A DNA stretch of 64,000 nt from Bacteroidales bacterium (GTDB lineage: Bacteria; Bacteroidota; Bacteroidia; Bacteroidales; UBA932): the NCBI GenBank assembly GCA_041441455.1, contig JASDTB010000056.1, positions 2,767 to 66,766 of the forward strand. The letters run 5' to 3'. A model generated the notes under the pieces. It was given only the letters and a program-made list of their open reading frames with translations, searched no databases and was not told the origin of the DNA. The translations under genes were made by a program, and so were the position numbers. Shown here piece after piece: positions 3,980 to 63,919 of the stretch. Each line of letters opens with the position of its first letter. Within the stretch, counting starts at the first letter, position 1.

Positions 3980-3983
3980 AAAA

Positions 3984-14670: not shown

Positions 14671-17191
14671 TTCTTTTATAAAGTTCAAATCCAAGAATAC
14701 TGAACAGACCTGCAGTAGCAGAGAGTGCAATTTCGTACCACTTAAGTGAACTGAATTGAAATAGTGATTGGAAGAATGGAACTTCTAGAACAATAATCAA
14801 AAAGAAAAGTGCACCTCCTAAAACCCATTTAACTGTACTATTGGGAGTTCTGATTATAGTGAATATGTTCTGTTTCCATGATCTGTTGGAAAGTATGATT
14901 GATATGTTAGAGACAATCAGGGTGATGAATGACATGGTTCTAACCTCTTTTTCATTTAGTCCAACATATAATCCAATGAAATAGACTAATAGTGTTATTA
15001 TTAATACATTAACGCCTTGTAGACAGCTCATTATGATTTTCTTTGAACCAAAGAATGGTTGATCTGCTTTTCTCGGGGCCCTTTTCATAATATCTTTTTC
15101 TGCTTCTTCTGCTTCAAAGATCACCGAACACGAAGGATCGATAATGAGTTCTAAGAAGACTATGTGTACTGGCCAGAGAATTAGAGGAAGGTCGGCAGTT
15201 AATACAGGAATCAGTGAAAGACCTGCAATTGGAACGTGGATTGCAAAGATATATCCTAGAGCCTTTTGTAAGTTGTCAAAAATTCTTCTGCCCATTTTGA
15301 TTGCACCTACAATCGAGGCAAAATTGTCGTCCATCAGTACTAAAGCGGATGCTTCACGAGCTACATCTGTTCCCTTTTCGCCCATAGCTATCCCAATATG
15401 GGCTGCCTTAAGCGCAGGAGCATCATTAACGCCGTCTCCTGTCATCGCCACCACTTCGCCGTTTCTCTTTAGAGCATTCACTAGCTTAAGTTTCTGTTCT
15501 GGAATTACCCTTGCAAAAATGTTAACATGTTTGATTCTTTCACTCAGCTCCTCTTCGCTCATTGCTGCCAACTCTTGCCCAGTGATTACATTTTCGGGGG
15601 TCTCAATTCCAATCTCTTTACCAATATTGGAGGCTGTGATAGGATAGTCTCCGGTTATCATAATTACTCTGATTCCTGCTTCGCGACACTCTTTTACCGC
15701 TAATGGAACCTCTTCTCGGATAGGGTCGGAGAGACCAATAAGTCCTATAAATTCAAAATCGAAATCGTGTTGAATTTCGGGTAGAGTTTTATCGATTACA
15801 TGAGCTTTTGCTACTCCCAGTACTCTTAACCCTTTTGCTGCCATTTCTGATACTGCCTTTTCATAAATGGCAATTTTCTCAATAGGGAGATGGCATAGGT
15901 CGAAAATTGCTTCGGGAGCACCCTTGGCGGCTATTACTTTTTGGTTTGAGGCTGGATTTATGAATACTCTGGACATTGCAAGCATCTCTTTTGAAAGAGG
16001 GTACTCTTTGACCATTGTCCAGTCTGTATGAATATGTTCGGTTTCGCTCATATGTTTCTCTCCAATCAAAATAATCGCCTTTTCCATTGGGTCGAAAGGA
16101 TTGACTTGGCTAGATAGAATTCCGAATTCAATAATATCGTGATACTCTTCTGGCACTCCGTTGCTTGCTACTGTGTAATTTACGTGGTCTCTATTGTAGA
16201 GTGCTGTGACAGTCATCTTGTTTTTGGTAATCGTTCCCGTTTTGTCGCTGCAAAGAACAGTAGCAGAGCCTAATGTCTCAATTGCCGATGGACGGCGGGT
16301 GAGGACACTTTTTCGAGACATTCTCCAAGCTCCAATTGCCATAAAGATAGTGAGCACAACTGGAAACTCTTCGGGGAGCATCGCCATTGCAAGGGTAATG
16401 CCTGCAAGGAAGCCTTTTAATAAATCGCCTCTAGTGAGAGTGAATATAACGATGACAGAGATACATAGAATTGCTCCCATAATTGCAAGTCTCTTCACTA
16501 AGACTCCCATCTCTCTCTTAAGTTTTGTAGGCTCCTCCTCTTCAGATTCTAAAGCCTTCCCAATTTTCCCAATTTCTGTATTTGACCCAATCGCGATTAC
16601 TCTTGCAACAGCATTTCCTTGGACAATCATCGAACCTGAGTAGACATAAGGTAGATCGTCTCCACCTGGGGTAAAGCTCTGTTCATTCTCTTCTGCCTCG
16701 CGTTTTCTTACTGGCACAGACTCTCCAGTTAAAAGAGATTCGTCTGCCGATAAATTATTGCAAGTGAGGATTATTGCGTCTGCAGGAACTCTGTCGCCCT
16801 CTTGTAAAACAATTAAATCATCTTTTACAACCTCTCTTCCGGCAACTCTGCGTGTCTCTCCATCTCTGATCACTAAAGCTCTTGGACTTGCTAAATCTTT
16901 TAATGCATCCAAGGCCTTCTCTGTTTTCCGCTCTTGATAGTATTCGATACCCATGATCACAAAAACGAAGCTCATCAACATGATCCCTTCGTTAATGTCG
17001 CCAAGAATAAGATAGAGCGTTCCGCAGGCTACTAAGAGCATAAACATTGGCTCTTTAATAATTCCTGCTGCAATATAAAGTGCACCTCTTTTTTTTGAGC
17101 CAGGAAGCTCATTCAAACCATCTCGTTTTTGTTTTTCGGCTACCTCTTTTTCCGATAAACCGTTGAATCGAGAGTTGTCGTTGATTGTCAT
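14651..17191 (-). CDS. Cation-transporting P-type ATPase (P2-like, ion unassigned)
   Basis: DKTGTIT phosphorylation site, TGES, MITGD, TGDGVNDAPAL hinge, N-terminal cation-ATPase domain; 846 aa. Confidence 0.9.
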   Translation of the reverse strand: MTINDNSRFNGLSEKEVAEKQKRDGLNELPGSKKRGALYIAAGIIKEPMFMLLVACGTLYLILGDINEGIMLMSFVFVIMGIEYYQERKTEKALDALKDLASPRALVIRDGETRRVAGREVVKDDLIVLQEGDRVPADAIILTCNNLSADESLLTGESVPVRKREAEENEQSFTPGGDDLPYVYSGSMIVQGNAVARVIAIGSNTEIGKIGKALESEEEEPTKLKREMGVLVKRLAIMGAILCISVIVIFTLTRGDLLKGFLAGITLAMAMLPEEFPVVLTIFMAIGAWRMSRKSVLTRRPSAIETLGSATVLCSDKTGTITKNKMTVTALYNRDHVNYTVASNGVPEEYHDIIEFGILSSQVNPFDPMEKAIILIGEKHMSETEHIHTDWTMVKEYPLSKEMLAMSRVFINPASNQKVIAAKGAPEAIFDLCHLPIEKIAIYEKAVSEMAAKGLRVLGVAKAHVIDKTLPEIQHDFDFEFIGLIGLSDPIREEVPLAVKECREAGIRVIMITGDYPITASNIGKEIGIETPENVITGQELAAMSEEELSERIKHVNIFARVIPEQKLKLVNALKRNGEVVAMTGDGVNDAPALKAAHIGIAMGEKGTDVAREASALVLMDDNFASIVGAIKMGRRIFDNLQKALGYIFAIHVPIAGLSLIPVLTADLPLILWPVHIVFLELIIDPSCSVIFEAEEAEKDIMKRAPRKADQPFFGSKKIIMSCLQGVNVLIITLLVYFIGLYVGLNEKEVRTMSFITLIVSNISIILSNRSWKQNIFTIIRTPNSTVKWVLGGALFFLIIVLEVPFFQSLFQFSSLKWYEIALSATAGLFSILGFELYKRINNQVL

Positions 17192-49104: not shown

Positions 49105-49172
49105 AGTAGACTTAGACAAATCGGAGCCAACTTCTTTTTCTTTTGAACTTAAACTATTTTGAAATATATATA

Positions 49173-50336
49173 ATGGAAAGAAGAGATTTTTTTAAAGTAT
49201 TGTCTGCCAGTGGTGTTGGTATGGCGATGGCTCCGGTGATCAAGGCTGCAGAATCTGTTGAACAGATTGCTCAAAGCGACAAACCTGCGACAAATGTTGC
49301 AGATGCTGTTGCTGCACCTCGAACAAAAACCTCAATGCCAGGAAGGTATCCTGGGCGAGTTGTAAAAGTTGTCGATCCAAAAAGTGTTGTTGACGGTGTT
49401 CCTCAAGAGGAGGTTGCATATGATATGCTTAAAAAGAGCATGTTGCTGCTAACTGGTGAGAAGAGTATTAAAAAAGCGTGGAGGCAATTTGTTTCCCCAA
49501 AAGATGTAGTTGGTCTAAAAGTTAATCCAGTTGCTGGAAAACTACTTACTACATCGCATGCTGTAACTAAAGCTGTAATAAGACAATTAGAAGAGGCAGG
49601 GATTAGCCGCGATAAGATTGTTATTTGGGATCGTCGAGAGATGCAGCTTCATGAGACTGGCTATACTAAAGAGAACTATCCAAGTATTAAAATAACAGGA
49701 ACCGAATGTCAAGATGAGAAAGGTGGTTATTATAATATGGAAGGTAAATTATATGCCGAAGAGAGAATCGATAAAGACCACTTCTTTTTTGCAGATGTAG
49801 AGGGTGAGTATGATGCATACACAATTCCGTTTATGGTAAATGGTGGTAAATACTCTTATTTCTCAAAGATTTGCACTCAAGAGGTTACAAAGATTATCAA
49901 TCTTCCTATCATGAAAAATGCAGGAGGTTCTTCAACTCTGTGTATGAAAAACTTAGGATATGGTGCAATCACAAATACCGGAAGACTACACGCTAAATTA
50001 TGGAACGAAACTTCTGCTTATGTCTGTGCTTTTCCACCAATTAGAGACAAAGTTGTTCTAAATATCCTTGATGGATTGGTTGGTTGTTTCGACGGAGGTC
50101 CGTCGGCAAAACCTCAATTTATTTGTAATTATAATACTCTTCTAGTAGGTTCCGACCCTGTGGCTGTTGACAGAACTGGTCATGACATCATTATCAATAA
50201 GAGGCTAGAAATGGGAATTCCTAGTGCTCAGAAAGAGAAATCTGTTGGCACTCCAAAATATGTTAAATTAGCAGAGGAATTAAAACTTGGAGTAGGTGAT
50301 GTCTCAAAGATTGAACTACTCGAAATCAAAGCATAA
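49173..50336 (+). CDS. DUF362 domain protein with twin-arginine (Tat) signal
   Basis: MERRDFFKVLSASGVGMAMAPVIKAAES is Tat-like. The remainder resembles DUF362. The ATG at 49173 is preferred over the upstream TTG. Confidence 0.6.
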   Translation: MERRDFFKVLSASGVGMAMAPVIKAAESVEQIAQSDKPATNVADAVAAPRTKTSMPGRYPGRVVKVVDPKSVVDGVPQEEVAYDMLKKSMLLLTGEKSIKKAWRQFVSPKDVVGLKVNPVAGKLLTTSHAVTKAVIRQLEEAGISRDKIVIWDRREMQLHETGYTKENYPSIKITGTECQDEKGGYYNMEGKLYAEERIDKDHFFFADVEGEYDAYTIPFMVNGGKYSYFSKICTQEVTKIINLPIMKNAGGSSTLCMKNLGYGAITNTGRLHAKLWNETSAYVCAFPPIRDKVVLNILDGLVGCFDGGPSAKPQFICNYNTLLVGSDPVAVDRTGHDIIINKRLEMGIPSAQKEKSVGTPKYVKLAEELKLGVGDVSKIELLEIKA

Positions 50337-50339
50337 ATA

Positions 50340-51074
50340 ATGACTCTCAAACCTAAAACAAAAACTAAATATTTGGTAATCCTGATCCTGTTCTTCTCCA
50401 CAAAACTCTTCGGAGGAGAGCAGGATCTTCTTATCAAAAAGGAGACAAAATTTACTGGTGAAGGTCTATATGGCTTTATGAATGGAGGCGCAGACCTTTA
50501 CTTAGAGTATGGTTTTTCTGATCTGATTTATAGAGAGCTCACTTATAGGGGTGAGGACTTTTCTGTTGAATTATACAAAATGCGATCTCCAGAAGATGCA
50601 TTTGGGATACACTCTGTTCTATCGTTTAGATGTATATCTGCTGACTCCTTAGGCAGAGTTGAGTGTCTGACAAAATATCAGTTGCAAGCTGTATCTGGTA
50701 ATTATTTTATCTCAGTAGTCTTCTCTTCTGGTTCACTTAATGGACGTGCAGGTGCGTACGAACTAATCTCTAAATTTCTCCCTAATGACGAATCAAAAGT
50801 AAATTTTCCTGATTTTGTACAAGAGAAAAAAAGATATACTACAAACCTATTCTATTGTGCTGGATCGTTGGGACTTTCAAATTTGCCATCTGCAATAAGC
50901 TCTCTATTGGAAGGAATCTCAGCTTATAAATTGTGGTATTATAAAGATGGATTATCATCAAATAGGTGTAGAGTGTTTTTTTCTGATAATCAATCACTTT
51001 CAATTGTTAAGCAGCGGATTCCCGCATCAGATATAGTTTCTATAAATAATTTAACTTTAGATTTTAAGTTTTGA
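50340..51074 (+). CDS. Secreted protein of unknown function (DUF6599-like)
   Basis: N-terminal hydrophobic leader, with motif GFMNGGADLYLEYGF. Starts 3 nt after the DUF362 gene. Confidence 0.4.
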   Translation: MTLKPKTKTKYLVILILFFSTKLFGGEQDLLIKKETKFTGEGLYGFMNGGADLYLEYGFSDLIYRELTYRGEDFSVELYKMRSPEDAFGIHSVLSFRCISADSLGRVECLTKYQLQAVSGNYFISVVFSSGSLNGRAGAYELISKFLPNDESKVNFPDFVQEKKRYTTNLFYCAGSLGLSNLPSAISSLLEGISAYKLWYYKDGLSSNRCRVFFSDNQSLSIVKQRIPASDIVSINNLTLDFKF

Positions 51075-51115
51075 TTTAAAATATTTTTATATTTGTATAG
51101 AAATATCTTAAAATC

Positions 51116-51475
51116 TTGAAATTCGTTCACAACATACTGTCTTTCACAATCTTGTCGGTGTATTTGGTTTCACTGATGGGAATTGGTCGTTATTCGTGTG
51201 GTTGTGAACACTCCTCTAGAATTTGCCTGTTTGGTATTCATACTGAATGTAATTGCCATCATAAGCATCATGTAAAGACGCAAAAATTCTTTAGATGTGT
51301 GTGTGGCGCTATACTTACAGTGAAGGAGCCTGAACAGAAGGATTGCTGTAAGGTGAACTATTATTTCCTTAAAGATGAGCAAAATATAGCTAATATTCTT
51401 TTTGTAGCAGCCGATTCTTTTTCTCCAGCACTTAAGCCTCTTACAGTTTTTATTATAAAGTCGAAAGGCCAATAA
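51116..51475 (+). CDS. Small Cys/His-rich membrane-anchored protein
   Basis: TTG start, one N-terminal TM helix, then clusters CGCEH, CNCHHKHH, CVC and DCC (10 Cys and 8 His in 119 aa). Confidence 0.45.
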   Translation: MKFVHNILSFTILSVYLVSLMGIGRYSCGCEHSSRICLFGIHTECNCHHKHHVKTQKFFRCVCGAILTVKEPEQKDCCKVNYYFLKDEQNIANILFVAADSFSPALKPLTVFIIKSKGQ

Positions 51476-51656
51476 TTAAATCGTTTCAGGCTCTATTCCA
51501 GCGAGTCACGGGGCCTTTGTTTAAAAAATTCAGTCAGTTTATCTTATGATTTATAAGTCGGGTGTAACTTTTATGCCCGAATGTAGTCTTATGTAAAAAT
51601 GCCTGGGTATACACCTAAGGTAAGTGAAATCATAATTAATAAACTTAAGTACAACG

Positions 51657-53810
51657 ATGAACAGACTTGGATTTATAATTCTAGCCCTAATCCTTTACAT
51701 GTCGTCAGTAGCGTCCTTTGCAGCCGAAAAACGAGCATTTGCAATTGTGACCGACGAAAAGACATACGCTTCATGCAAGACGTCTGTCGACCAATATGCC
51801 GAATCTATCAAAAATGAGGGGATAAATGTATTTGTCATCAATAATGGATGGAGTACCCCCGAAGATATTAGAAAAAAATTAGTTGAATTATATAAAAGCA
51901 GCAACCTAGAGGGAGCTGTCTTTATTGGAGATGTGCCAGTTCCTATGATTAGAGATGCGCAACATCTTACAACTGCCTTTAAGATGGATCAAAGAAGAGA
52001 TTGGCAAGAATCTTCTGTGCCGTCTGATCGTTTTTATGATGATTTTGATCTTAAATTCAATTTTATCAAAAGAGACTCTACAAAAGCGCTCTATTATTAC
52101 TACTCTCTTGCCTCCGATGGGCCTCAGTCTATCAATTGCGATATCTATACCGCACGTATTAAGCCTCCAGTGGTAAAAGGTAAGGGTAAGTATGAGTTAA
52201 TAAGCGAGTTTTTAATAAAGGCTGCTAAAAATAAAAGCTCAAAACATCTTATAAACAGACTTTCTTACTTTGCTGGCCATGGATATAATTCCGATTGTAT
52301 GGTTGCCAGAATCGATGAGAAGTTGGCCCTTTCTGAGCAGTTTTCCTTTATAAATAAAGGGTCGAAAAGAGTTAACTATCTCGATCATAAATTTGAAGAC
52401 AATATAAAATACCGTTTGTTAGCAGAATTGCAGAGTGAAGGATTGGATTTAGCGATTCTTCACCATCATGGTTCTGAGGACTTACAACTAATGAATGGCT
52501 CTCCTTTAACTTCTGACACTCAAAGATGGTTGGAGATGGCAAAAAAATTCTTCCGCGGAAAGATCAGAGGAGCAAAAGATACAACTGCTGCAAAAAAATA
52601 TTATATCGACAACTATAAAGTGCCTGAATCATGGGTTGCAAATGCATTTGATAAAAAAATGATGTTGAAAGACAGCCTAGAAGATGCTGCGATAGATATT
52701 CATATTTCCGATCTTGAGGGCTTCAAGCCACAAGCAAAGGTTGTCATTTTCGATGCTTGCTTCAATGGATCATTTCACTTAGATGATTATATCAGTGGCC
52801 ATTATATTTTTGCAGACGGGGAGACTATGGTTGTTAAAGCAAACTCAGTAAATACTCTGCAAGATACATGGACTAATCAATTAATAGGCTTGCTCGACAG
52901 AGGAGTATCTGTGGGGAATTGGGCAAAAGGCCAGATGACACTTGAGTCTCACTTAATAGGAGATCCGACATATAGATTTCTTGCTCAACCAGCAATCAAC
53001 TTTGATTTGAATGAAAAGGTTGCCGACCACAATCCAAATTCAAAATATTGGCAAAAATTACTTCAATCTAGCGATCCTGAATTACGCTCTTTAGCGATTA
53101 AACGTCTTGCCAGCCAAGCAGCCTTGAGCGATGATGAACTGCTAAAGATTCAATCTCAAGATCCAAATTGTATAGTTCGATTAATGGCATTCACTCAAAT
53201 GAGGGAGAGGGCAAACGAGAACCTAGACAAGGCAATAAAAATCGGATTAAATGATGAATATGAGTTGATTAGAAGATTGTCTGCATACATTGCAGGAATG
53301 AACTACTCTCCGATTTATCTTCAAGATCTTTACAATATGAGAGTTGCTCCTGGAGTTAGCGAAAGGGTTGATTTTCAGATTAAGTCAGCATCGGAAGGCT
53401 ACAAAAAAGAGGAGGCTTTGGCTGCATTTGATAATGCAATAAAAGGCAAAAGCGGAAAATGGTACGATGATTTAAAAGCAAAAAGGAAAAATATAGATTA
53501 TACTTTGTCGAAAAATGAATCCGATATGAATTCATTATTAGACGAAAATGTTTCTGCTAAAGAGAAGAGATTCACACTGATGTCACTTAGAAACAGTAAT
53601 AATATTGCCTACTTAGATATACTCTTTAAATTCATGAAAGAGTCGAAAGACAGAGCGTTGAGACTTCAGTTAGCGGAGGCCTTTGGATGGTATAAATATT
53701 CATACAAAAAAGCAGAGATCATTAAGTTTTGTACATCACTCGCTTCTGAAGAGAGAGATGTTGAAATCAAAAATGAGTTGCTAAGAACCATTAATAGATT
53801 AAACAATTAA
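51657..53810 (+). CDS. Secreted gingipain (C25)-like domain + HEAT-repeat protein, paralog A
   Basis: Signal peptide. Motifs FIGDVPVP, VPSDRFYDDFDL, AGHGYNSDC, LHHHG, FDACFNGSF (Cys codon 52758-52760), LIGDPTY. C-terminal HEAT-like repeats (LRLQLAEAFGW). Confidence 0.6.
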   Translation: MNRLGFIILALILYMSSVASFAAEKRAFAIVTDEKTYASCKTSVDQYAESIKNEGINVFVINNGWSTPEDIRKKLVELYKSSNLEGAVFIGDVPVPMIRDAQHLTTAFKMDQRRDWQESSVPSDRFYDDFDLKFNFIKRDSTKALYYYYSLASDGPQSINCDIYTARIKPPVVKGKGKYELISEFLIKAAKNKSSKHLINRLSYFAGHGYNSDCMVARIDEKLALSEQFSFINKGSKRVNYLDHKFEDNIKYRLLAELQSEGLDLAILHHHGSEDLQLMNGSPLTSDTQRWLEMAKKFFRGKIRGAKDTTAAKKYYIDNYKVPESWVANAFDKKMMLKDSLEDAAIDIHISDLEGFKPQAKVVIFDACFNGSFHLDDYISGHYIFADGETMVVKANSVNTLQDTWTNQLIGLLDRGVSVGNWAKGQMTLESHLIGDPTYRFLAQPAINFDLNEKVADHNPNSKYWQKLLQSSDPELRSLAIKRLASQAALSDDELLKIQSQDPNCIVRLMAFTQMRERANENLDKAIKIGLNDEYELIRRLSAYIAGMNYSPIYLQDLYNMRVAPGVSERVDFQIKSASEGYKKEEALAAFDNAIKGKSGKWYDDLKAKRKNIDYTLSKNESDMNSLLDENVSAKEKRFTLMSLRNSNNIAYLDILFKFMKESKDRALRLQLAEAFGWYKYSYKKAEIIKFCTSLASEERDVEIKNELLRTINRLNN

Positions 53811-53831
53811 CCACAATTAATAACACAAACT

Positions 53832-56693
53832 ATGATGAAACCCAAACTAAAAGAACTTGCCGAAAGAGGAAAATTCTCTTTTTTGGTGGCTTTGGCAATT
53901 ACTGCGATGCTTGTTCTTGGAACAACTGCAAACGCGCAGGTAGGAGCTGGAGGAAACTACTCTACACTTAAAGGGGTTGTGACCGAGAAGGGGACAAAAG
54001 CTGTCCCTGTTGAATTTGCGGCTGTAATTGTGAACCCTCAGGGGTCAGCCGGTATGACTGATAAGAATGGCGAATTTAATTTAACAAAACTCTCCCCAGG
54101 AAAGGTTAAAGTTAGATTCCAGTTTTTGGGAATGGAGAATCTCGACACTACAGTTGTTCTTTATGCCGGGAAAACTACAGTTCTCAATGTTGAGATGGAA
54201 TATAGCTCATTCCGTCTTAAAGAGGTTGCCGTTGTAGCTCAAGAGAGTAAAGCGGGTCAAGCTACTGCTTCAAATATATCCAGACAAGCGATGGACCACT
54301 TACAAACAAGTTCGCTTTCTGACATCATGCAATTATTGCCTGGTGGAGTAACTGCTAACCCTAACTTGTCAACAGCAAAGACGATTAGTATCCGTAATTT
54401 GGGTGGCACAGCTAATGAGATGAATAGTCTTGGAACATCTATCATCGTAGATGGAGCTCCAATTTCGAATAATGCTAATATGCAAGCGCTCTCGCCAACA
54501 ATTTCAGGAGGAGCTTCTGCAGTGGGTGGTGGAGCATCTCCTTCATCTGGTATTGACTTAAGAACAATCTCTACCGATAATATCGAATCTGTTGAGGTAA
54601 TCAGAGGTATTGCATCTGTTGAATACGGAGATATGACCTCAGGAGCTGTTTTAATCAGATCAAAAGCTGGGCGTGAGCCATTAACAATAAGATTTAAAAC
54701 TGACCCAAATACATATCAGATTTCAGTTAGTAAAGGTATGCACCTTGGAGGAAAAGCTGGAAATTTGAACATCAGTGGAGACTATGCTTATAGCGTTTCA
54801 AAACCTACAGAGTCTTATGCATATTATCAAAGAGCTACTGCCAAAGTTCTATATTCAAATGTCTTTGGTAAACTAGCTTCTAACACATCATTTGATTTTG
54901 TACTTGGTAAAGATACTCGTGAAAAGAATCCAGATGATGTTCGTTCTCAATTAGCAACTGGAGCTAAGGATATTACACTTAGATTTAATACAAATGGAAC
55001 TTGGAATGTTAACTATGGTTGGTTGAATAATGTAAAATATACATTGTCCGGATCATACGCAAATAAACACTCTTTCCAAGAGGAACTATTAGGCAACGCA
55101 TTTGCAGCCTACTCTATGTCTGCAACTGATGGAGCTATATTGAGCAACAGACCTTACCAAAGAGTATATGATATTAATGGAGTTGAACTTACAAATATCC
55201 CTTCGAATGAAACCTCTTATTACGCGACTTATCTTCCTAATGAATATTTTAGCCGTTATGATATCTATGGAAAAGAGGTAAATATTTTCGCAAACGTTAA
55301 AGCCAACTTAACAAAAACAATTGGTGGGGTTTTCAATAAAATTATTATTGGTGCTGATTTTAAGAGTGATGGAAATCTTGGTGATGGTAAAGTCTATGAT
55401 TTAAAGAGACCTCCATATAGAAATGTTTCAAGTGAAAACTCTTCACCTCGTCCAAGGAAATTTTCTGACATCCCTTTTGTAAACCAACTGTCTCTTTATG
55501 CAGAGGAGAACCTGCTCTATTCTTTTGGAGAGAGAGAGCTTAGTCTGCAAGTCGGAGGTCGCTATGACGTGGTTGCAGACAAATCTGCTTTGACCTATCG
55601 TCTTAATGGATCATTTGATCTTATCCCTAGATATTTAACACTAAGAGCAGGACACGGTTTGCTTGCAAAAGCTCCAACAGCTTTGTACTTGTATCCAGAA
55701 AATGCATATTTTGATTTTGTTCACTACAATACCTTAGGTAGTTCTACAATTCCTGAGTCGGAGCAACTGTTATTAGCCTCAACAAGAATTTTCAATACCG
55801 AAAACAAAGATCTAGAAATGGCTATTAATACTAAGTCAGAAGTTGGGTTCGATTTTAAGATCAAAAAGATGCGCTTCTCTTTTACGGGTTTTTATGATAG
55901 GATGAATAATGGCTATAATCTTGGATCTGATTTCTCTACATTCAAACTAATTGAATATACTCAATACAAAGCAGGAATCACACAACCAGGGCATACTCCA
56001 AAACTCGATTTCAAGAGCAAAAACAACATCTTCGTAAATTTTGCAAAGCCAATGAATAATATTGAGTCTGTTAACAAGGGAGTTGAAATGGAAATCGACT
56101 TAGGTAGATTCGAAGAACTTCGTACCTCTTTCTTTATAAATGGTGCATATACTCGTTCAAGTTCATGGAATAATGGTCACTCTTTCAGCTCTAAGAAAAA
56201 CTTAAATAGTCTAGAAAAGAACATTGGCGTTTATGAAAAAGCTGTAAGCAAAGAGGAAGACGAGCGTTTAACTACAACTTTCAGAGCTACCCACAATATC
56301 CCTTCAATCGGATTTGTTCTAACACTATCTGCTGAAGTTAAATGGATTAATAAATATTGGTCAACATATGGAAACGACACAATGTTTGTCTCTTATATCT
56401 CAAGAGAGAATGGACAAGTGCTTCCGTTTGATCCTTCGAAAAAGGACGATCCAGAATTTTCGTACATGTTCGATAGCAAAAATCCTAGGCGATATATTGT
56501 GGAGTCTGTATTCCCTGCAGTAATCTTTAACTTCCACTTGTCAAAAGAGATTGGTAAAAATATGAGGGCCTCCTTCTATGCAAATAATATGTTCAACTGT
56601 AGACCTTTATACGAAAACAAAATGAGTCCTGGCTCTTTTACTCGTTTAAATATTCCAATGTACTTTGGGTTTGAACTATCTGTGAAGCTGTAA
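53832..56693 (+). CDS. TonB-dependent receptor, triad copy 2
   Basis: Signal peptide, CarboxypepD_reg-like domain, and plug STDNIESVEVIRGIASVEYGDMTSGAV nearly identical in wording to copy 1; 953 aa. Confidence 0.85.
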   Translation: MMKPKLKELAERGKFSFLVALAITAMLVLGTTANAQVGAGGNYSTLKGVVTEKGTKAVPVEFAAVIVNPQGSAGMTDKNGEFNLTKLSPGKVKVRFQFLGMENLDTTVVLYAGKTTVLNVEMEYSSFRLKEVAVVAQESKAGQATASNISRQAMDHLQTSSLSDIMQLLPGGVTANPNLSTAKTISIRNLGGTANEMNSLGTSIIVDGAPISNNANMQALSPTISGGASAVGGGASPSSGIDLRTISTDNIESVEVIRGIASVEYGDMTSGAVLIRSKAGREPLTIRFKTDPNTYQISVSKGMHLGGKAGNLNISGDYAYSVSKPTESYAYYQRATAKVLYSNVFGKLASNTSFDFVLGKDTREKNPDDVRSQLATGAKDITLRFNTNGTWNVNYGWLNNVKYTLSGSYANKHSFQEELLGNAFAAYSMSATDGAILSNRPYQRVYDINGVELTNIPSNETSYYATYLPNEYFSRYDIYGKEVNIFANVKANLTKTIGGVFNKIIIGADFKSDGNLGDGKVYDLKRPPYRNVSSENSSPRPRKFSDIPFVNQLSLYAEENLLYSFGERELSLQVGGRYDVVADKSALTYRLNGSFDLIPRYLTLRAGHGLLAKAPTALYLYPENAYFDFVHYNTLGSSTIPESEQLLLASTRIFNTENKDLEMAINTKSEVGFDFKIKKMRFSFTGFYDRMNNGYNLGSDFSTFKLIEYTQYKAGITQPGHTPKLDFKSKNNIFVNFAKPMNNIESVNKGVEMEIDLGRFEELRTSFFINGAYTRSSSWNNGHSFSSKKNLNSLEKNIGVYEKAVSKEEDERLTTTFRATHNIPSIGFVLTLSAEVKWINKYWSTYGNDTMFVSYISRENGQVLPFDPSKKDDPEFSYMFDSKNPRRYIVESVFPAVIFNFHLSKEIGKNMRASFYANNMFNCRPLYENKMSPGSFTRLNIPMYFGFELSVKL

Positions 56694-56705
56694 ATTGGAT
56701 AAAAC

Positions 56706-57935
56706 ATGAAAAAAGTTAGAAACATGAAAAGAATAATACAAAATATAATAGCAGTGGTAGTAGCTTCGATTGCTTTTATCTCTTGCCAGCAATTCAAAGA
56801 CGCAGTGAATGTCTCCGATGTCAAGGAGCTTAATGCTGTAGTTAAGGTAACTCTTAATCTAGGCAACGCACCGATGCCCGATGTTTTGAATGTAAAGTTG
56901 ATTAATTATGCAGAGAAGTATGAGATTACCAAAACAATGGATCCAAATGGAACTGTGACAATTGATAAAATTATCCCAGGTATTTATACAATTACCATTA
57001 CTTCCGAAAAGAATAAAGATGGATTTACGTATAATTACAGCGGAAATCTTGTAAATAAGGAGATTATCTCGACAGGAGGTGAGCTTAATGTGACAGTTGG
57101 CTCTTCAAAGTCAGGTGCTCTTGTGATGAAAGAGATTTTCTATTGTGGTTCAAAAACCCCTACAGGCGGTTCTTACTTCAGAGACCAGTTCTATGAAATC
57201 TATAACAATAGCGAAACTCCACAAAATGTCAAAGGTCTAGCAATTGCGATTCTTAATCCAAATACAGCCACAGCTAACCTTCCTGTATGGCCAGGTGAAG
57301 ATGCTGCAAATTATGTTTATGCAACAACTATATGGCAGGTTCCATCTGATAAAGATTATATAATCCAACCAGGTGAATCTATCATTATCGCTCAAATGGC
57401 AGACAATCATCAAAAGAGCAACCTCAATCCTACATCTCCAGTTAATCTTTTAAGTGCAGAATTTGAAACCTATATAAATACAACATCAATTATAAGTGAT
57501 AATCCTGCAATCAATATGTTTATGGCTTTCTGGCCATCTCCAACACCGCAATGGCTGACAACAGTATTTGGAGGAGCCTTTGTAATCTATTTTCCATCTA
57601 CTCCTATAAATCCTGTTGATTATATTTCTCCAATTGGTTCTACATCTAAAAACTATAAAATCAAAATTGATGATGTAGTTGATGCAGTAGAACTTGTAGG
57701 TAATCCAAATCAAGTTCAGCTAAAGAGAGTTCCTGCGGTCTTAGATGCAGGTGCGACAACAGTGGGAGCTACATATGTTAGTAAAAGCGTAGCACGTAAG
57801 GTTAAAGAGACAAAACAAGATGGAAGAGTCATCTATTACGACACTAATAATAGCTCAGAAGACTTTGCCGTGATGGATGTCCCAATGATTAGAAGAAATG
57901 GTGCTAAAGCGCCTGTATGGAATACATGGAAATAA
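56706..57935 (+). CDS. DUF4876-like lipoprotein, triad copy 2
   Basis: Lipobox AFISC. Shares VMKEIFYCGS...DQFYEIYNNSET...DTNNSSEDF with 28905-30143. Confidence 0.6.
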   Translation: MKKVRNMKRIIQNIIAVVVASIAFISCQQFKDAVNVSDVKELNAVVKVTLNLGNAPMPDVLNVKLINYAEKYEITKTMDPNGTVTIDKIIPGIYTITITSEKNKDGFTYNYSGNLVNKEIISTGGELNVTVGSSKSGALVMKEIFYCGSKTPTGGSYFRDQFYEIYNNSETPQNVKGLAIAILNPNTATANLPVWPGEDAANYVYATTIWQVPSDKDYIIQPGESIIIAQMADNHQKSNLNPTSPVNLLSAEFETYINTTSIISDNPAINMFMAFWPSPTPQWLTTVFGGAFVIYFPSTPINPVDYISPIGSTSKNYKIKIDDVVDAVELVGNPNQVQLKRVPAVLDAGATTVGATYVSKSVARKVKETKQDGRVIYYDTNNSSEDFAVMDVPMIRRNGAKAPVWNTWK

Positions 57936-57956
57936 TTTAAACTTAATTGAAAAACA

Positions 57957-59516
57957 ATGAGAAAATTGAAAATTATATACAGGTCGGGAGCATTATTGGC
58001 GGCAATTATCTTTATGCAGCCGCTGTTTGCGCAAACCATTCAGACCAATCCTGCAACTATTGAACTGCAAAAAGCAAAAAGTTTGTGGTTCAACACTAAC
58101 AATGGAGCAGGACTTGTACTGGATCAAATGAAGGACTTTACTATTGTGAACCTTGGCTACACTACCAAAACAGGTGACTTTAAACTTCGCCAACAAGGAA
58201 CCAGAGAGGGAGACATTAATGTTGGAGCAGAAGGCGGTCTTGCCTTAGGTGGTGGATATGTATGGGGTAAAATCTCTTACGACAATATTTTACAAAAGAA
58301 TACACAATACAATACAACTATGCTCGACCCAGATAGGGGAATGCCATATTATGTAGCCGATCCGGTGATAAGCGACTGGGTTAAACAGAGCTATCAACTT
58401 TCGATGAAGGCTGCTACTCCTAAATTATGGAATCTTCTCTATTTAGGTATTGAAGCCGATTATCAGACAAAGACTGGTGCCAAGCAGATGGACCCTCGCT
58501 CCAAAACTGATTATTACAGTATTGACGTTCGCCCTTCGGTATTATTTAATCTAAAAGAGCACTCAATTGGATTAAATTTCGAATATCAAAACAATAATCA
58601 AGAATCAGCACCTACACTAAGTAATAGCCAGCAAGAACAGATTGTCTATCTTTTGAAAGGAGTTGGAAATTACTCGTCTGGTGTTGTTGGAGGTTTACAA
58701 GGGATTAGCTCTTATGTATATTCAGGAAACAAATTGGGTGGCGGTGTTCAATACTCTTATACGATTAATGAATACAAAGCCCTTCTCTCTGGAAACTATT
58801 CATATAGAGTTGAAGATGTTATTACTGCACCAAGTAAACCTAAAAAGGTAGGAACTATCAAGGATGCATTCTATGGAGGCAATCTTCAGTTAGTAAAAGC
58901 TGGAAAAGATATGCACAAACTGGAAATTGGATATAAAGAAAACAAACTTAGCGGCATTGAATATGTTCAAGTTCTTGATAATACCTATGAGGTTCAACAG
59001 TGGATTACCGTTCATAGTAGCGTAAGATCAAAGTTTACTTACAAAGAAGCTTATGGAAAATATGATTTCTTCAGAGGTGCAGATACCGAGTACAATTGGA
59101 GAGTAGGAGTAGATGGGTCATACAATTCATCAACAGATATTTATCTTCTACCTCACTCAAGTATGCATGTGAAAAACTTTTGTGCAGGTCTAAACTTCAA
59201 GTATAATATTCCAGTTGATAAATCTACTAGAATCCTTGCTGGAGTTAATGGAATGTTCAATAAAAACATCGAAGCATCTTATAATTACAATGGTGCCGAT
59301 CCAATGTCTCTTGTGGTAACCGACTTTATGACTCCCGATTTCCTATATAGAGCTCAGGATTATTATAAAGCAGGTGCAGAAGCTACTATGTTTTTCAACA
59401 TTAGCAAAGCAAATACCTCAGGTATGTTTGTAAAAGTTGCGTGTGATTATTACAAGCCAAAAGAGGGCGATGGTAATAGAGTAGTTGCCAACTTTGGCCT
59501 TGGTTTTACATTCTAG
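57957..59516 (+). CDS. Second outer-membrane beta-barrel protein (DUF6850-like), triad copy 2
   Basis: Signal peptide. NNGAGLVLDQMKDFTIV aligns with copy 1 ENGAGLVFNKVKDFSTV. C-terminal FGLGFTF. Confidence 0.6.
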   Translation: MRKLKIIYRSGALLAAIIFMQPLFAQTIQTNPATIELQKAKSLWFNTNNGAGLVLDQMKDFTIVNLGYTTKTGDFKLRQQGTREGDINVGAEGGLALGGGYVWGKISYDNILQKNTQYNTTMLDPDRGMPYYVADPVISDWVKQSYQLSMKAATPKLWNLLYLGIEADYQTKTGAKQMDPRSKTDYYSIDVRPSVLFNLKEHSIGLNFEYQNNNQESAPTLSNSQQEQIVYLLKGVGNYSSGVVGGLQGISSYVYSGNKLGGGVQYSYTINEYKALLSGNYSYRVEDVITAPSKPKKVGTIKDAFYGGNLQLVKAGKDMHKLEIGYKENKLSGIEYVQVLDNTYEVQQWITVHSSVRSKFTYKEAYGKYDFFRGADTEYNWRVGVDGSYNSSTDIYLLPHSSMHVKNFCAGLNFKYNIPVDKSTRILAGVNGMFNKNIEASYNYNGADPMSLVVTDFMTPDFLYRAQDYYKAGAEATMFFNISKANTSGMFVKVACDYYKPKEGDGNRVVANFGLGFTF

Positions 59517-59526
59517 AAAAAACGAA

Positions 59527-61692
59527 ATGGTTAAAAAAGCTCTTATATTCATAGTTGCAATCGGAGTATACCTCTCTGCCAGTGCTCAGAAGGCAGAGAG
59601 GAGCTCCTTCGCCGTTGTAGTCGATAATGAAACATACGCGGCATGCAAGAATGAGATAGATTCATACAAAGCCCTCCTCCAAAAAGAGGGCTTGTTTGCA
59701 TCTATACTCAGTTCTAATTGGAACACACCTCAACAGGTAAAGGATGCCCTATACAAGTTGTATAAAACAGACAACCTCCAGGGAGCAATTTTCATAGGAA
59801 ATATCCCTATTGTAATGGTCAGAGATGCCCAACATCTCACTACAGCATTTAAAATGGATCAAGAGAGGAATCCAATGTTCCAATCTTCTGTTCCGTCTGA
59901 TCGTTTTTATGATGATTTCGACCTCCTTTTTAATTATATCAAAAAGGATTCAATCAATTCTCTTTTCTTCTACTACTCTTTAGATGCAAATTCACCTCAG
60001 AAAATTGAGAGCGATATTTACACAGGTAGACTTAAGCCAACAAAGAGAGGTGAAGCTGGGTACGATCAGATTCGTAAGTACTTCAAAAAATTGATTCAGG
60101 AGAGAAGCACTTCAAATAAATTAGATGTGTTATGCTCATACACTGGAGAAGGCTCTTTTTCTAACAGTCTGACTGCATGGAAAGAGGAGCCTGTAATCCT
60201 TAGAGAGCAGTTCCCACAAGCATTCAAAACTGCCAATTCTGCAAAGTTTTATATGTTCTACATGTACCCTGTTATGAAAGATGTCATAGCGAAAGAACTT
60301 CAACGTCAAGAGCTAGATCTGATGTTATTTCACGAACATGGTATGCCAAATAGACAATATCTTACAGGAGAGCCTGCTGAGAGTGAAAATTTAGTAGAAT
60401 CTGCAAAACTTGCCTTTAGAGAGAGACTACGTCGCGAATCTGGGAATCCTGCTAAAGTGAAGATGTTGAAAGAGAAGTATATGTCGACATTTAAAATTGA
60501 CTCTACTTGGTTCAATGGCGCATTCGATAGAGAGATAATCATTAAAGACTCATTAGAGGAGCTTAGAAGAGGTATTGTTCTCGAAGATGTTCCTGTAATT
60601 AAGCCAAATGCCAGAATAGTCCTATTTGATGCATGTTATAATGGTGACTTTAGAGAAGATCGTTATATTGCTGGAGAGTACATTTTTTCAGATGGGAAGA
60701 CTCTAGTGACATTAGGTAATTCAGTGAATGTTCTGCAAGACAAATCATCTGGAGATATGTTAGGCTTGCTTGGTTTAGGATTTAGAGTAGGAGAGTGGGC
60801 AAGAATGACAAATATTCTTGAGTCTCACATAATTGGTGATCCTACCTTTAGATTTACTGATAACAAAAGAGCTCAAATAGACTTTAACTCAACAAAAGCT
60901 GATTACTGGCTCAAAGTTCTTAGTGCAGAAAAACATCCCGATCTACAATCACTTGCCCTCCATAAGTTATTCAGTCTAAACTACAAAGAGATGTCGTCTT
61001 TACTCACAAAGACATATTTTAGCTCTAGATCATATATGGTTAGACTGCAATGTATCCATCTCCTCCCTTTTTACAACGACAATAATTTTAAAGAGGTTTT
61101 AAAGAGCTCGATCTATGATCCATATGAGTTCATCCGTCGAAAAAGCGTCTACGCAATGGGAAGAGTTGGTTACGACGAATTTATTCCAAGTGTAGTATCA
61201 GTTTACATCAATGACTATCTCGACGAACGTGTAGCCTTTAATGCAGTATTTGCTTTTGATATGTTGGATATACCAAAGGTGAAGGCTGAGTTTGAAAAAC
61301 AGTTGTCGCAAAATAGCGCAATTTATGATAAGGCGAGAGCAAAAGATCAATTCTTTAAAAGGATAGAGAGCCGAGAGCGATTAGCTGCGGGAAGTCTTAA
61401 TCTGACTGATAAAAAGATGAAAAAGGGTGAACGCCTATTTTCGGTTAGCTTCTTAAGAAACAACAATTATCATACACCTGTGGAGAGATATTTAGCCACT
61501 CTTGCCGACAAGTCCGAAGATTCTTTAATAAGGTTGAGACTTGCTGAGGCTTTAGGCTGGTATACATACTCCTATAAAAAGCAAATAATCATTGATTCGT
61601 GCAAAAAAATTGCAAGTGAAGAGCCAGATGGTTCTGCATTGAAAAACGAACTGATTAAAACTGCAAACAGATTACAAACCTATATGAGATAG
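59527..61692 (+). CDS. Secreted gingipain (C25)-like domain + HEAT-repeat protein, paralog B
   Basis: Start at MVKKALIFIVAIGVYLSASAQ (ATG 59527). Motifs FIGNIPIV, VPSDRFYDDFDL, FHEHG, FDACYNGDF (Cys codon 60634-60636), IIGDPTF. C-terminal HEAT-like repeats. Confidence 0.6.
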   Translation: MVKKALIFIVAIGVYLSASAQKAERSSFAVVVDNETYAACKNEIDSYKALLQKEGLFASILSSNWNTPQQVKDALYKLYKTDNLQGAIFIGNIPIVMVRDAQHLTTAFKMDQERNPMFQSSVPSDRFYDDFDLLFNYIKKDSINSLFFYYSLDANSPQKIESDIYTGRLKPTKRGEAGYDQIRKYFKKLIQERSTSNKLDVLCSYTGEGSFSNSLTAWKEEPVILREQFPQAFKTANSAKFYMFYMYPVMKDVIAKELQRQELDLMLFHEHGMPNRQYLTGEPAESENLVESAKLAFRERLRRESGNPAKVKMLKEKYMSTFKIDSTWFNGAFDREIIIKDSLEELRRGIVLEDVPVIKPNARIVLFDACYNGDFREDRYIAGEYIFSDGKTLVTLGNSVNVLQDKSSGDMLGLLGLGFRVGEWARMTNILESHIIGDPTFRFTDNKRAQIDFNSTKADYWLKVLSAEKHPDLQSLALHKLFSLNYKEMSSLLTKTYFSSRSYMVRLQCIHLLPFYNDNNFKEVLKSSIYDPYEFIRRKSVYAMGRVGYDEFIPSVVSVYINDYLDERVAFNAVFAFDMLDIPKVKAEFEKQLSQNSAIYDKARAKDQFFKRIESRERLAAGSLNLTDKKMKKGERLFSVSFLRNNNYHTPVERYLATLADKSEDSLIRLRLAEALGWYTYSYKKQIIIDSCKKIASEEPDGSALKNELIKTANRLQTYMR

Positions 61693-61696
61693 TGCA

Positions 61697-63919
61697 ATGA
61701 AAAAGATAAGATCAATACTATATTGTGCAGTCATACTATTTCTGACACCAAATTTCACTATTGCAAAAGAGATTATACCTGCATCAAAAGGGGTATACGC
61801 CTCATCATTTGCAATTATTGTCGACACAAAGACACTATCTCAGGTAAGAGATGAGCTAATAGCATACAAAAACTGTCTAAACGAAGAGGGCTTGGGAGCT
61901 TTCATAATTGCAGACGATTGGGCTACGCCAGAGCAAGTAAAGAGCGAAATTGTCGCTAATTACAAGAAGAGGCCAATTCTCGAAGGTGTCGTTTTTGTTG
62001 GAGACATTCCTGTAGTCAGAGTCCATAACGCACAACACATGACCTCTGCATTTAAGATGGATGAAGTAAAATTTCCAAAAGAGGAGTCAGCTGTACCAAC
62101 AGATCGCTTTTATGACGACCTCGACTTGAAATTTAACTTTGTAGAGAGAGACAACACAAATCCGCTACATTTCTATTACAGACTAAGTGAAGACTCTCCT
62201 CAAAACCTCCAGTCAGATATATATTCCGCAAGAATGACTCCTCCGTCAGATTACGGAGTTGACAGGAGTGAGTTACTTAAAAGGTACCTTACGAAAGTTG
62301 TAATTGCGCACAAAGAGCAAAATGCTTTTGATAAATTGATTGTTTTCAATGGTCATGGATATAATTCAGACTGTTTGACCGCCTGGAATAACGAGCAGTT
62401 TGTAATGAAAGAGCATTTCCCATTGGCATTTAAATCTTCCGAAGGCAATGGCTTCTATAATTTTCGCCAAGATCCATTTATGAAGTTTAAGCTCTACGAT
62501 AAGATTCAAGAACCAAAGACCGATCTTTTTATCTTTCACGAACATGGAGCATTCGATACTCAATACATCACAGGCGAATATCCATCGGCATCTTCAACAG
62601 ATGATGTTAGCTATTTCGAAGCAATAAACGATCCTACGAAGAAGATAGGCCATCTTGCTTATTTATCATCTACTATCAGAAACCAATATCGCAAGTACAA
62701 AGGTGAAAAGGCAGAAAATTTCAAAAAGACAGCAATCGAAAAGTATAAATTAACACAAGATTTTTTTGATCAAAAGAGACTAGATTCTACAAAGTTGTCT
62801 GATTCCAAAATCGTAAATGAAGTAAATATCTATCTTGATGATTTGAAGGATAAGAATATGCAGTCTCGAGTAACAATTTTTGACGCATGTTACAATGGTT
62901 CATTTCATCGTCCAGGATACATTGCTGGTTACCACGTATTTGGAAATGGAAATACTGTTGTTGCTCAGGGAAATACTGTAAATGTACTGCAAGATAAATG
63001 GACAATAGAGCTAATTGGAATTTTAAATGAGGGTGCAAGAGTTGGCTTTTGGCAGAAAGAGACTCAGTTTCTAGAGAGCCATCTTATTGGTGATCCTACT
63101 TTTAAATTTACATCTGCAAACTCCAAGAAGTTAAACTACGATTTGGCTCTCTCCGCAAATTCAAAGGGTATTTGGGAAGGCTATCTAAAATCGAATAACC
63201 CAAATCTCAAAGCAATTGCTCTTAAGATGATTGGCAAAATAGATGGAAGCACAAGCTCAGCATCGATGCTAAATATTTACAAGACATCGGAATTCTATGG
63301 TGTAAGAATGGAGGCTCTCAAGAGGTTAATTGATATTAAAGATGCAAATATGGTAGCAGCATTGAATTTAGCAATTAACGATCCTTATGAACTGATCAGA
63401 CGAAATGCCGCAAGATATGCTGGATACAGCGGAGACGAATCCTTAGTGAAGGGTTTGGTTTCAACAGTTTTGTTTTCGGATGAGTCGCAAAGAGTACAGT
63501 ACGCTGCAGCGAGTTCTCTTAAGATGTTTCCAAGTGAAGTTGTAATTGGTGAACTCAAAAAACAGGGGGCAGACACAACTCTCATTAATAACTTTATCTC
63601 CGATTATAACGATCAGCAAAGCTCTTTAGAGGCGATGAACGATAAAAAGGGAAAAGTAGATGGACGACTATCGATAATCAGAAGTTATCGCAATTATAAC
63701 GTCCATGCTCATGCACAACACCTTCTTGCAATCGTTACCGACCAAAGCGACAACATCGAACTTAGAATTGCTGCCGCCGAAGCCCTAGGTTGGTTCGACA
63801 GAAGTATTAAACGTACCGAAATCGTCACCAAACTAAAGCAGCTACAGTCCAACCCTTCGCAAGACAAACGCCTTCTATCCGAAATCCAACAAACAATCAC
63901 AAGATTATTAAATAAATAA
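61697..63919 (+). CDS. Secreted gingipain (C25)-like domain + HEAT-repeat protein, paralog C
   Basis: Signal peptide. Motifs FVGDIPVV, VPTDRFYDDLDL, NGHGYNSDC, FHEHG, FDACYNGSF (Cys codon 62888-62890), LIGDPTF. C-terminal HEAT-like repeats (LRIAAAEALGW). Confidence 0.6.
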   Translation: MKKIRSILYCAVILFLTPNFTIAKEIIPASKGVYASSFAIIVDTKTLSQVRDELIAYKNCLNEEGLGAFIIADDWATPEQVKSEIVANYKKRPILEGVVFVGDIPVVRVHNAQHMTSAFKMDEVKFPKEESAVPTDRFYDDLDLKFNFVERDNTNPLHFYYRLSEDSPQNLQSDIYSARMTPPSDYGVDRSELLKRYLTKVVIAHKEQNAFDKLIVFNGHGYNSDCLTAWNNEQFVMKEHFPLAFKSSEGNGFYNFRQDPFMKFKLYDKIQEPKTDLFIFHEHGAFDTQYITGEYPSASSTDDVSYFEAINDPTKKIGHLAYLSSTIRNQYRKYKGEKAENFKKTAIEKYKLTQDFFDQKRLDSTKLSDSKIVNEVNIYLDDLKDKNMQSRVTIFDACYNGSFHRPGYIAGYHVFGNGNTVVAQGNTVNVLQDKWTIELIGILNEGARVGFWQKETQFLESHLIGDPTFKFTSANSKKLNYDLALSANSKGIWEGYLKSNNPNLKAIALKMIGKIDGSTSSASMLNIYKTSEFYGVRMEALKRLIDIKDANMVAALNLAINDPYELIRRNAARYAGYSGDESLVKGLVSTVLFSDESQRVQYAAASSLKMFPSEVVIGELKKQGADTTLINNFISDYNDQQSSLEAMNDKKGKVDGRLSIIRSYRNYNVHAHAQHLLAIVTDQSDNIELRIAAAEALGWFDRSIKRTEIVTKLKQLQSNPSQDKRLLSEIQQTITRLLNK

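Follow-up and report, generated by a model that had tools for sequence, protein, structure and literature searches.

Three exported proteins joining a predicted C25-like domain to HEAT repeats share an operon with a TonB-dependent transporter module in Bacteroidales

We analysed a stretch of 64,000 nucleotides from a Bacteroidales bacterium (GTDB family UBA932; assembly GCA_041441455.1, contig JASDTB010000056.1, positions 2,767 to 66,766 of the forward strand; hereafter the window), in which an earlier note, made from the sequence alone, had described three paralogous proteins, here called A, B and C, with gingipain-like and HEAT-repeat parts around a TonB-dependent receptor. In the list of open reading frames (ORFs), six ORFs follow each other in one run on the + strand in the order A, TonB-dependent transporter (TBDT), DUF4876 protein, DUF6850 protein, B and C (Table 1), and because the successive gaps are only 4–21 nt (21, 12, 21, 10 and 4 nt) the six genes make up one operon. 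The three mutual paralogs lie where the note had placed them, all on the + strand, and can be aligned over their full length (A versus B 38% identity, A versus C 34%). Every sequence block that it had quoted was recovered in the same order in A, B and C, and its cysteine codons at 52758-60, 60634-36 and 62888-90 are correct, each reading in a DAC context. The program-called ORF of B opens at a TTG at 59485 and so overlaps the DUF6850 gene at its 3' end; the likely start is the ATG at 59527, from which a normal signal peptide is read. The middle of the operon is a TBDT, DUF4876 and DUF6850 module, with the three genes adjacent on the same strand and carrying the expected Pfam scores, lipobox and C-terminal Phe. 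The DUF4876 lipoprotein, which has a relative of solved structure but no characterisation in the PDB (4q1z, E = 2.6e-76), is a probable surface 'lid' of the TBDT, and the DUF6850 protein, for which no relative was found in the PDB, is predicted to be an outer-membrane beta-barrel.

Table 1. Genes of the operon, sites within paralog A and the gene directly upstream, in window coordinates (res, residues; OMP, outer-membrane protein).
Feature	Position	Strand	Details
Paralog A, 717 aa	51657..53810	+	Signal peptide res 1-23; C25-like domain res ~24-447; PBS-type HEAT solenoid res ~451-717
A Gly207-His208-Gly209 ('site 1')	52275..52283	+	End of first strand, caspase-like subdomain; not the catalytic His
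A His271-Gly272 ('site 2', LHHHG)	52467..52472	+	Predicted catalytic His and oxyanion-hole Gly; aligns to RgpB His211-Gly212; codons checked
Helical insertion, A res 285-338	52509..52670	+	Between His and Cys strands; absent in insert-less members and RgpB; helices in AlphaFold2 model
A Ala367-Cys368 (FDACFNG)	52755..52760	+	Predicted nucleophile; aligns to RgpB Ala243-Cys244; codons checked
TBDT, 953 aa	53832..56693	+	Pfam Plug 53.3 bits, CarbopepD_reg_2 51.1 bits; N-terminal CarboxypepD_reg-like extension and plug; not SusC-type
DUF4876 lipoprotein, 409 aa	56706..57935	+	Pfam 155.5 bits; lipobox FISC
DUF6850 protein, 519 aa	57957..59516	+	Pfam 349.7 bits; signal peptide; C-terminal OMP-like GLGFTF
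Paralog B, 721 aa from ATG	59527..61692	+	Predicted catalytic His271 60337-60339, Cys370 60634-60636; C-terminal HEAT
Paralog C, 740 aa	61697..63919	+	Predicted catalytic His283 62543-62545, Cys398 62888-62890; C-terminal HEAT
Small membrane-anchored Cys/His-rich gene	51116..51549	+	Directly 5' of A; conserved in 29 related loci; frameshifted in window

The C-terminal ~270 residues of A, B and C consist of PBS-type HEAT repeats, in agreement with the earlier note. Pfam HEAT_2 scored 54.8 bits for C, above its cut-off of 27.7, and slightly under that cut-off for A (23.7 bits) and B (25.7 bits), while a 37-sequence family profile searched against the PDB matched alphaRep, a consensus design of PBS-type HEAT, at E = 2e-15 over residues ~460-680. 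An AlphaFold2 model of full-length A (predicted local distance difference test, pLDDT, 86.4; predicted template modelling score, pTM, 0.86) has ~17 helices in residues 451-716, and its Foldseek search, which is dominated by the HEAT domain, returned the same alphaRep/HEAT structures (E = 5e-5). The repeat type is also that of the PBS-lyase-type HEAT proteins CpcE/F and NblB, to which the likeness of A, B and C is that of a generic repeat and not of a bilin-lyase active site: B has an NblB-like HEAT match at E = 5.6e-7 that falls far under the cut-off, and the NCBIfam equivalog cut-offs were not reached for either NblB (29.3 bits versus 300) or CpcE (23.3 bits versus 330).

All three paralogs begin, as read from their sequences, with the cleavable-looking signal peptide that the note had proposed, of the Sec type, with a basic n-region and a hydrophobic core followed by SFA/AE, ASA/QK and TIA/KE, respectively. 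No lipobox was found in the N-termini of A, B and C, and a lipobox-like motif is absent in 106 of the 123 relatives with a complete N-terminus. A Pfam scan of the three proteins, again in line with the note, returned no C-terminal sorting domain of the type IX secretion system (T9SS; PF18962), and neither the C25 pro-peptide (PF08126) nor the immunoglobulin-like (Ig-like) domain (PF03785), all of which are present in the true gingipain relatives that we collected. Bacteroidota proteins with a type I signal peptide that have neither a lipobox nor a T9SS domain stay in the periplasm. Since A, B and C show this combination, they are most likely periplasmic.

The resemblance of the N-terminal domains to gingipains was less direct. 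A, B and C gave no match to Pfam Peptidase_C25 (PF01364; gathering threshold 23 bits) at E <= 1, and 22 close N-terminal domains gave none even at E <= 10; a hidden Markov model built from gingipain relatives alone was too narrow, its best family match being 15.4 bits. Searches of the PDB with A (phmmer) returned nothing relevant, and profiles of close relatives returned HEAT/alphaRep structures alone for the full length and noise for the N-terminal domain. Faint clan CD matches appeared in single sequences (caspase_w_EACC1 at E = 0.033, Peptidase_C14 at 0.034, Raptor_N at 0.15), and a first hhalign run, made with a shallow alignment of 22 sequences, reached P = 0.022 and covered no more than subdomain A. 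When the AlphaFold2 model of the N-terminal domain (pLDDT 80.9) was compared with the PDB by Foldseek, there was no gingipain in the top 50, where template modelling (TM) scores were all 0.13-0.26; the best and sole clan CD match among them was a SAVED-CHAT protease at rank 7 (TM 0.26), and the list consisted mostly of periplasmic-binding-protein and LacI folds, as weak generic alpha/beta matches. In the same model the first subdomain contains four strands, six follow in the second, and the motifs lie where strands end; this predicted secondary-structure order is compatible with the gingipain plan. The lack of any direct Pfam or PDB sequence match for the window proteins or a close-relative profile, the folds that lead the Foldseek list and the limited reach of the first hhalign run all favour the view that the domain is a generic alpha/beta fold of the Rossmann-like kind, unrelated to clan CD, whose short motifs resemble those of gingipains by chance.

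More distant members of the family contradict that view. An exhaustive family-profile search yielded 1004 clusters (50% identity), of which 273 reached E <= 1e-30; 136 diverse full-length N-terminal domains (cluster representatives) taken from this search were used for the conservation counts. In 14 of the 136, the HxHG and DAC motifs are not separated by the ~55-residue helical segment, and the spacing of His and Cys, ~101 residues in most representatives, is 34-59 residues in these 14, compared with 33 in RgpB. Four insert-less members pass the Pfam Peptidase_C25 threshold, and in two of them the match spans nearly the whole profile: P0275 with 47.2 bits (profile positions 99-371 of 374), P0277 with 36.0 bits (27-371), P0272 with 33.4 bits and P0273 with 26.8 bits. 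All four are unambiguous members of the family, matching the A-type profile at E = 1e-109 to 1e-112; P0272 is 35% identical to A, and NCBI names a further member, P0286, 'C25 family cysteine peptidase'. When the insert was deleted in silico, B reached 14.8 bits (E = 0.017) against Peptidase_C25, and A and C gave no match.

Profile-profile comparison led to the same place. A 25-sequence C25 profile, with its RgpB sequence validated against 1cvr_A, was aligned by hhalign to the 136-sequence family profile with the insert-less P0272 as master, and scores were set against 60 block-shuffled templates and a reversed template. The local score was 31.4 (P = 0.0027) versus a null of 18.3 +/- 3.1 (maximum 26.4) and the global score 29.4 (P = 1.5e-5) versus 4.7 +/- 2.9 (maximum 15.5), that is, 4.2 and 8.5 standard deviations above the shuffles, and the reversed template gave no signal. 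The alignment is collinear across both subdomains, with seven motif pairs in order, both catalytic pairs included: RgpB G77-D78, S92-D93, R112, H211-G212, A243-C244, N246-G247-F249 and G340-D341-P342 are paired with A G91-D92, S123-D124, R167, H271-G272, A367-C368, N370-G371-F373 and G435-D436-P437, respectively. We regard a chance resemblance as highly improbable. Because the insert-less intermediates pass the Pfam threshold and the profiles align, we conclude that the N-terminal domain is, as judged from sequence, a divergent homolog of the C25 (gingipain, clan CD) peptidases; the Pfam match appears to be lost in A, B and C because the helical insert sits between the catalytic strands. The C25-like reading of the earlier note is in this way sustained through intermediates and profile-profile alignment, and not by direct comparison of the window proteins with Pfam C25 or by Foldseek. 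By the same comparisons A, B and C are three anciently duplicated members of an uncharacterised C25 subfamily, the triplication being placed far back because each of the three has its own orthologs.

The alignment also identifies the predicted catalytic residues. LAILHHHG and VVIFDACFNG of A, each closing a hydrophobic strand, align to LVNYTGHG and FIFDVACVNG of RgpB, which places the predicted dyad at His271 and Cys368. Of the 136 representatives, 135 have His271, all 136 have Gly272 and 135 have Cys368; within each clade the counts for His and for Cys are the same, at 44/44 for A, 14/15 for B, 24/24 for C and 53/53 for the unassigned sequences. The note had named two candidate His-Gly sites, and of these it is site 2, conserved in A, B and C as it had said, that aligns with RgpB His211. 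Site 1 as the catalytic His is ruled out by its variability (position 208 is H in 81, S in 13, N in 9, E in 7, Q in 7 and D in 5 of the representatives), which extends to the A orthologs, several of which have N or Q. As site 1 varies and B keeps the dyad, the suggestion that B might be a dead paralog, made in case site 1 were catalytic, falls away, while the cysteine of the FDAC motif, whose variation among orthologs would have spoken against a peptidase, proved nearly invariant. RgpB Gly153 aligns to A Gly207, and position 208 presumably falls near RgpB Glu152, the residue that orients His211 in the gingipain structure, so a polar helper role for position 208 is a possible reading.

The near-invariance of the His-Gly and Ala-Cys pairs, together with the C25-type oxyanion Gly, argues for catalysis as judged from these alignments. 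Other residues are conserved to a similar degree: D124, R125, R167 and Q402 are invariant, and D403, E430 and H432 nearly so. The most conserved stretch of the whole family is residues 95-165 of A (window ~51940-52150; AQHLTTAFKMD ... VPSDRFYDDFDL), which contains D124 and R125 (each 136/136); this stretch, from AQHLTTAFKMD to VPSDRFYDD, is a ~70-residue insertion relative to RgpB subdomain A and is without a gingipain counterpart. Such residues open the way to a reading in which A, B and C are not enzymes at all, but binders or chaperones that ligate a metal or haem through the conserved His/Cys and His/Asp/Glu residues and serve as periplasmic shuttles, with the HEAT repeats as a second binding surface. 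It would account for the many invariant or near-invariant residues beside the dyad (H103 122/136, D124, R125, H269 102/136, E430, H432 132/136, D436), it suits an operon context of metal/haem uptake and the absence of the pro-domain that a constitutively active periplasmic protease normally needs, and periplasmic-binding-protein folds are the top, though weak, Foldseek matches. Those matches, however, have TM scores of 0.13-0.19 and root-mean-square deviations above 12 A, and against a binder stand the Gly after His in 136/136 and the N-G after Cys, which agree position by position with the C25 oxyanion-hole and catalytic geometry. Conservation across three paralog clades and several phyla is also typical of active enzymes. 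We consider the binder reading credible but unlikely.

We then asked how the family is arranged in other genomes, using 80 loci retrieved from GTDB species genomes. A TBDT adjoins the family gene in all 66 loci with enough sequence, and the full triad of TBDT, DUF4876 and DUF6850 is present in 63/63 Bacteroidales loci, so that the linkage on which the note had staked its interpretation extends well beyond the window. Among the 60 loci long enough to show the whole unit, the order A-TBDT-DUF4876-DUF6850-B-C recurs in 46; the others include loci with A only (9), with A-B-C-triad (3) and with three A-like copies (1). The genes 3' of C differ between genomes, and therefore the unit ends at C. The operon unit is conserved across Bacteroidales and beyond, and members of the subfamily are spread over several FCB-group phyla (Bacteroidota, Ignavibacteria and allies), the named ones coming from Bacteroidales, Chitinophagaceae, Ignavibacteria, Marinimicrobia and KSB1. 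In one Ignavibacteria genome (L083/84) the order is TBDT-DUF4876-DUF6850-BNR protein-family member; locus L082 reads Porin_O_P-TBDT-DUF4876-DUF6850-C25/HEAT-HEAT-494 aa-HmuY, with the HmuY-family (haemophore) gene at the end of the operon (14583-14909); and in L086, which has the triad and family member(s), an ECF (extracytoplasmic function) sigma factor and FecR (2408-4103) precede the TBDT. Some loci depart from the usual gene content. In L064 (5469-12136) three tandem A-like genes stand upstream of the transporter, with B and C downstream. P0148 and P0149, of ~1400 aa, each hold two complete family copies and may be true fusions or merged gene calls. In L019 (71-1318) and L020 (4909-9044) there is a second, divergent TBDT-DUF4876(-DUF6850) module with 24-31% identity, <=10 kb from the first and with no extra C25-HEAT genes.

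A linkage this strict to three outer-membrane components in a tight operon could also mean that the paralogs serve the transporter itself. A, B and C would then be PorU-like transpeptidases or maturases that trim or attach parts of their own system (DUF4876, DUF6850 or the N-terminal extension of the TBDT) and do not act on cargo. PorU, the T9SS sortase, is itself a C25 member, and the copy number of the paralogs varies from one to three, and up to five in L064, with the triad unchanged. Neither DUF4876 nor DUF6850 shows a feature like a sorting signal, however, 9/60 Bacteroidales loci have A only, and the Porphyromonas gingivalis module is listed as lipoprotein, receptor and hypothetical proteins only, so the triad may work without such factors. 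A maturation role for the paralogs is in our view rather unlikely.

What the system imports is suggested by its relatives. The BT1939/BT1938 pair of Bacteroides thetaiotaomicron and the PG1020/PG1019 pair of P. gingivalis have, like the window, a non-SusC TBDT followed by a DUF4876 lipoprotein. A preprint proposes that the DUF4876 proteins BT1938 and BT3632 are surface lids of non-SusC transporters and finds the TBDT-lid pair nearby or conserved in 81 genera (bioRxiv 10.1101/2023.03.17.533168). Expression of the BT1939/BT1938 and PG1020/PG1019 modules rises when iron or haem is limiting (PMC10434189, PMC13096392): iron depletion raised PG1019-PG1022 20.8- to 214.5-fold and BT1933-39 3.5- to 7.4-fold. 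PG1019/PG1020 are also up in a hemH mutant without haem, in a 2026 paper that still calls them an uncharacterised transport system (PMC13096392), and in experiments with CdhR mutants the expression of PG1019 shifts together with the hmu genes (PMC11018363). Two of the loci described above add hints to a haem or iron cargo and to trans-envelope signalling, L082 through its HmuY gene and L086 through its FecR-type control. Module expression, HmuY and FecR together are circumstantial pointers to iron or haem acquisition, and because the homologous TBDT/DUF4876 modules respond to iron or haem starvation, being among the most strongly induced genes in P. gingivalis and induced in B. thetaiotaomicron as well, the cargo is most likely a peptide- or protein-bound iron or haem source.

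Taking these observations together, we put at roughly 0.55 the probability that A, B and C work in the periplasm as cysteine peptidases on the cargo of an uptake system for iron/haem starvation. The TBDT, with its DUF4876 lid and DUF6850 barrel, would import a peptide- or protein-bound source of iron or haem, on which the C25-HEAT paralogs would act in the periplasm as cysteine endopeptidases or transpeptidases. The HEAT arm, perhaps with the helical insert, may bind and hold the cargo, take over from the missing pro-domain by gating the active site, or attach the enzyme to the transporter, and the three paralogs might supply different specificities or form a hetero-oligomer.

Several observations weigh against this proposal. 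The function of A, B and C is something that we infer, and regulation by iron is known from other species, in transporter modules homologous to this one; the 'HEAT repeat domain-containing protein' listed in the B. thetaiotaomicron locus may or may not belong to the C25-HEAT family, and the P. gingivalis module may lack C25-HEAT proteins altogether. A, B and C have no PF01364 match of their own, only B with its insert deleted approaches Peptidase_C25 (E = 0.017) while the intact proteins do not, and the Foldseek list of the N-terminal model is without a gingipain. The additional invariant polar residues could mean a chemistry other than peptide hydrolysis. As to place and partners, 17 of the 123 relatives with a complete N-terminus have a lipobox-like N-terminus, and one KSB1 member stands alone and not beside a transporter.

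A bolder version of the peptidase proposal can be built on the HEAT arms. NblB-type HEAT proteins are thought to help detach bilins, and A, B and C might by analogy form a hetero-oligomeric periplasmic 'unpacking' machine for an imported haem- or iron-carrying polypeptide, in which the C25 domains cut the carrier and the HEAT arms hold the tetrapyrrole or even help to detach covalently bound haem (e.g. haem c from cytochrome fragments). We hold this version to be improbable; if true, it would be a route of haem or iron piracy in haem-auxotrophic Bacteroidales that is unrelated to Hmu, Hus and Iht.

The region upstream of A was also inspected. The orthologs of the small Cys/His-rich gene are ~147 aa long and share, in an alignment of 29 orthologs, the motif GRYSCxCDHxSxI..GI...CxCT...HxC..CG..L...DCC, for which there is no Pfam or NCBIfam match. 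In the window, frame 1 of this gene has a stop at 51473-75 and the conserved C-terminus, which ends at 51549 (RPIIKSFQALFQRVTGPLFKKFSQFIL with its terminal stop), is read in a different frame. The gene may belong to the unit as a seventh member with a metal-binding or regulatory role, it may be a pseudogene here, or the frameshift may come from a sequencing error. Further upstream, 49143-51074 (+) encodes a DUF362 protein with a twin-arginine-like signal (RRDFFKVLSASGVGMAMAP) and then a DUF6599 protein; the block of DUF362, DUF6599 and Cys-rich genes precedes A only in the closest relatives. Conserved k-mers 5' of A, considered as an operator, proved to belong to the Cys-rich gene, whose frameshifted 3' end they represent. 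Rfam had no match in the window or in 50900-51800, and a sigma-70 promoter scan, a type of scan blind to Bacteroidota-type promoters, did not exceed shuffled sequence in its number of sites. A role in anti-phage defence was dropped, as the PADLOC models gave only a generic HEAT-ARM match for C (E = 2.4e-4) and none for A or B.

Among known systems, the closest comparison is with the gingipains RgpB and Kgp (MEROPS C25, clan CD; PDB 1CVR, 4RBM), with which A, B and C share a two-subdomain catalytic domain, the collinear motifs xVLLVGD/IP, SDxxY, GRF, HG, (D)AC-NG-F, ST/SVN and GDP and a dyad in the same order. Unlike gingipains, they carry the helical insert between the His and Cys strands and have no pro-peptide, Ig-like, haemagglutinin/adhesin or T9SS C-terminal domains, and are therefore not expected to be surface or secreted virulence proteases; the HEAT solenoid stands where gingipains have their Ig-like and T9SS sorting domains. 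Asp163 in the S1 site of RgpB has no aligned acidic counterpart in A. PorU (PDB 6ZA2), a distant Bacteroidota C25 member used for processing and not for nutrition, shows that the fold supports transpeptidation, but it is a surface-exposed, PorV-bound T9SS component of 1156 residues, whereas A, B and C are linked to a TBDT. Separase and Raptor join a clan CD-type domain to helical repeats. A Trichodesmium metacaspase likewise combines clan CD with E-Z HEAT repeats (PMC2853523). In these three, as in A, B and C, a caspase fold is attached to a solenoid of the HEAT/ARM type as a scaffold or substrate-docking arm; they are cytoplasmic, belong to C14/C50 or are pseudo-enzymes, and are without a link to membrane transport, in contrast to the exported, C25-type paralogs of the window. 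The earlier statement that no protein with a C25-like and HEAT architecture is characterised needs to be narrowed accordingly: databases hold proteins with C25 and HEAT_2 domains, the C25-named P0286 among them, and clan CD with HEAT is known from Trichodesmium, while a search of the literature on DUF6850, BT1936/BT1937, 4Q1Z and periplasmic clan CD with HEAT found no description of a C25-HEAT family. The literature found neither describes the HEAT protein of the BT locus nor gives it a peptidase domain.

To our knowledge, nearly all described C25 peptidases are either gingipains, which are virulence proteases secreted by the T9SS, or the T9SS sortase PorU. The family described here would add a large C25 branch, with >1000 clusters at 50% identity in Bacteroidota, Ignavibacteria, Marinimicrobia and KSB1, whose members appear to be retained in the envelope, have a HEAT arm in place of the sorting domain and are tied to a TonB-dependent import module. 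The insert between the catalytic strands would explain why annotation misses these C25-HEAT proteins. Relatives of the module include PG1019/PG1020, which are among the genes most induced in P. gingivalis by iron/haem starvation, and the conserved Cys/His pair offers handles, through point mutants, clan CD probes and known gingipain inhibitors, on what the cargo may be and how it may be released.

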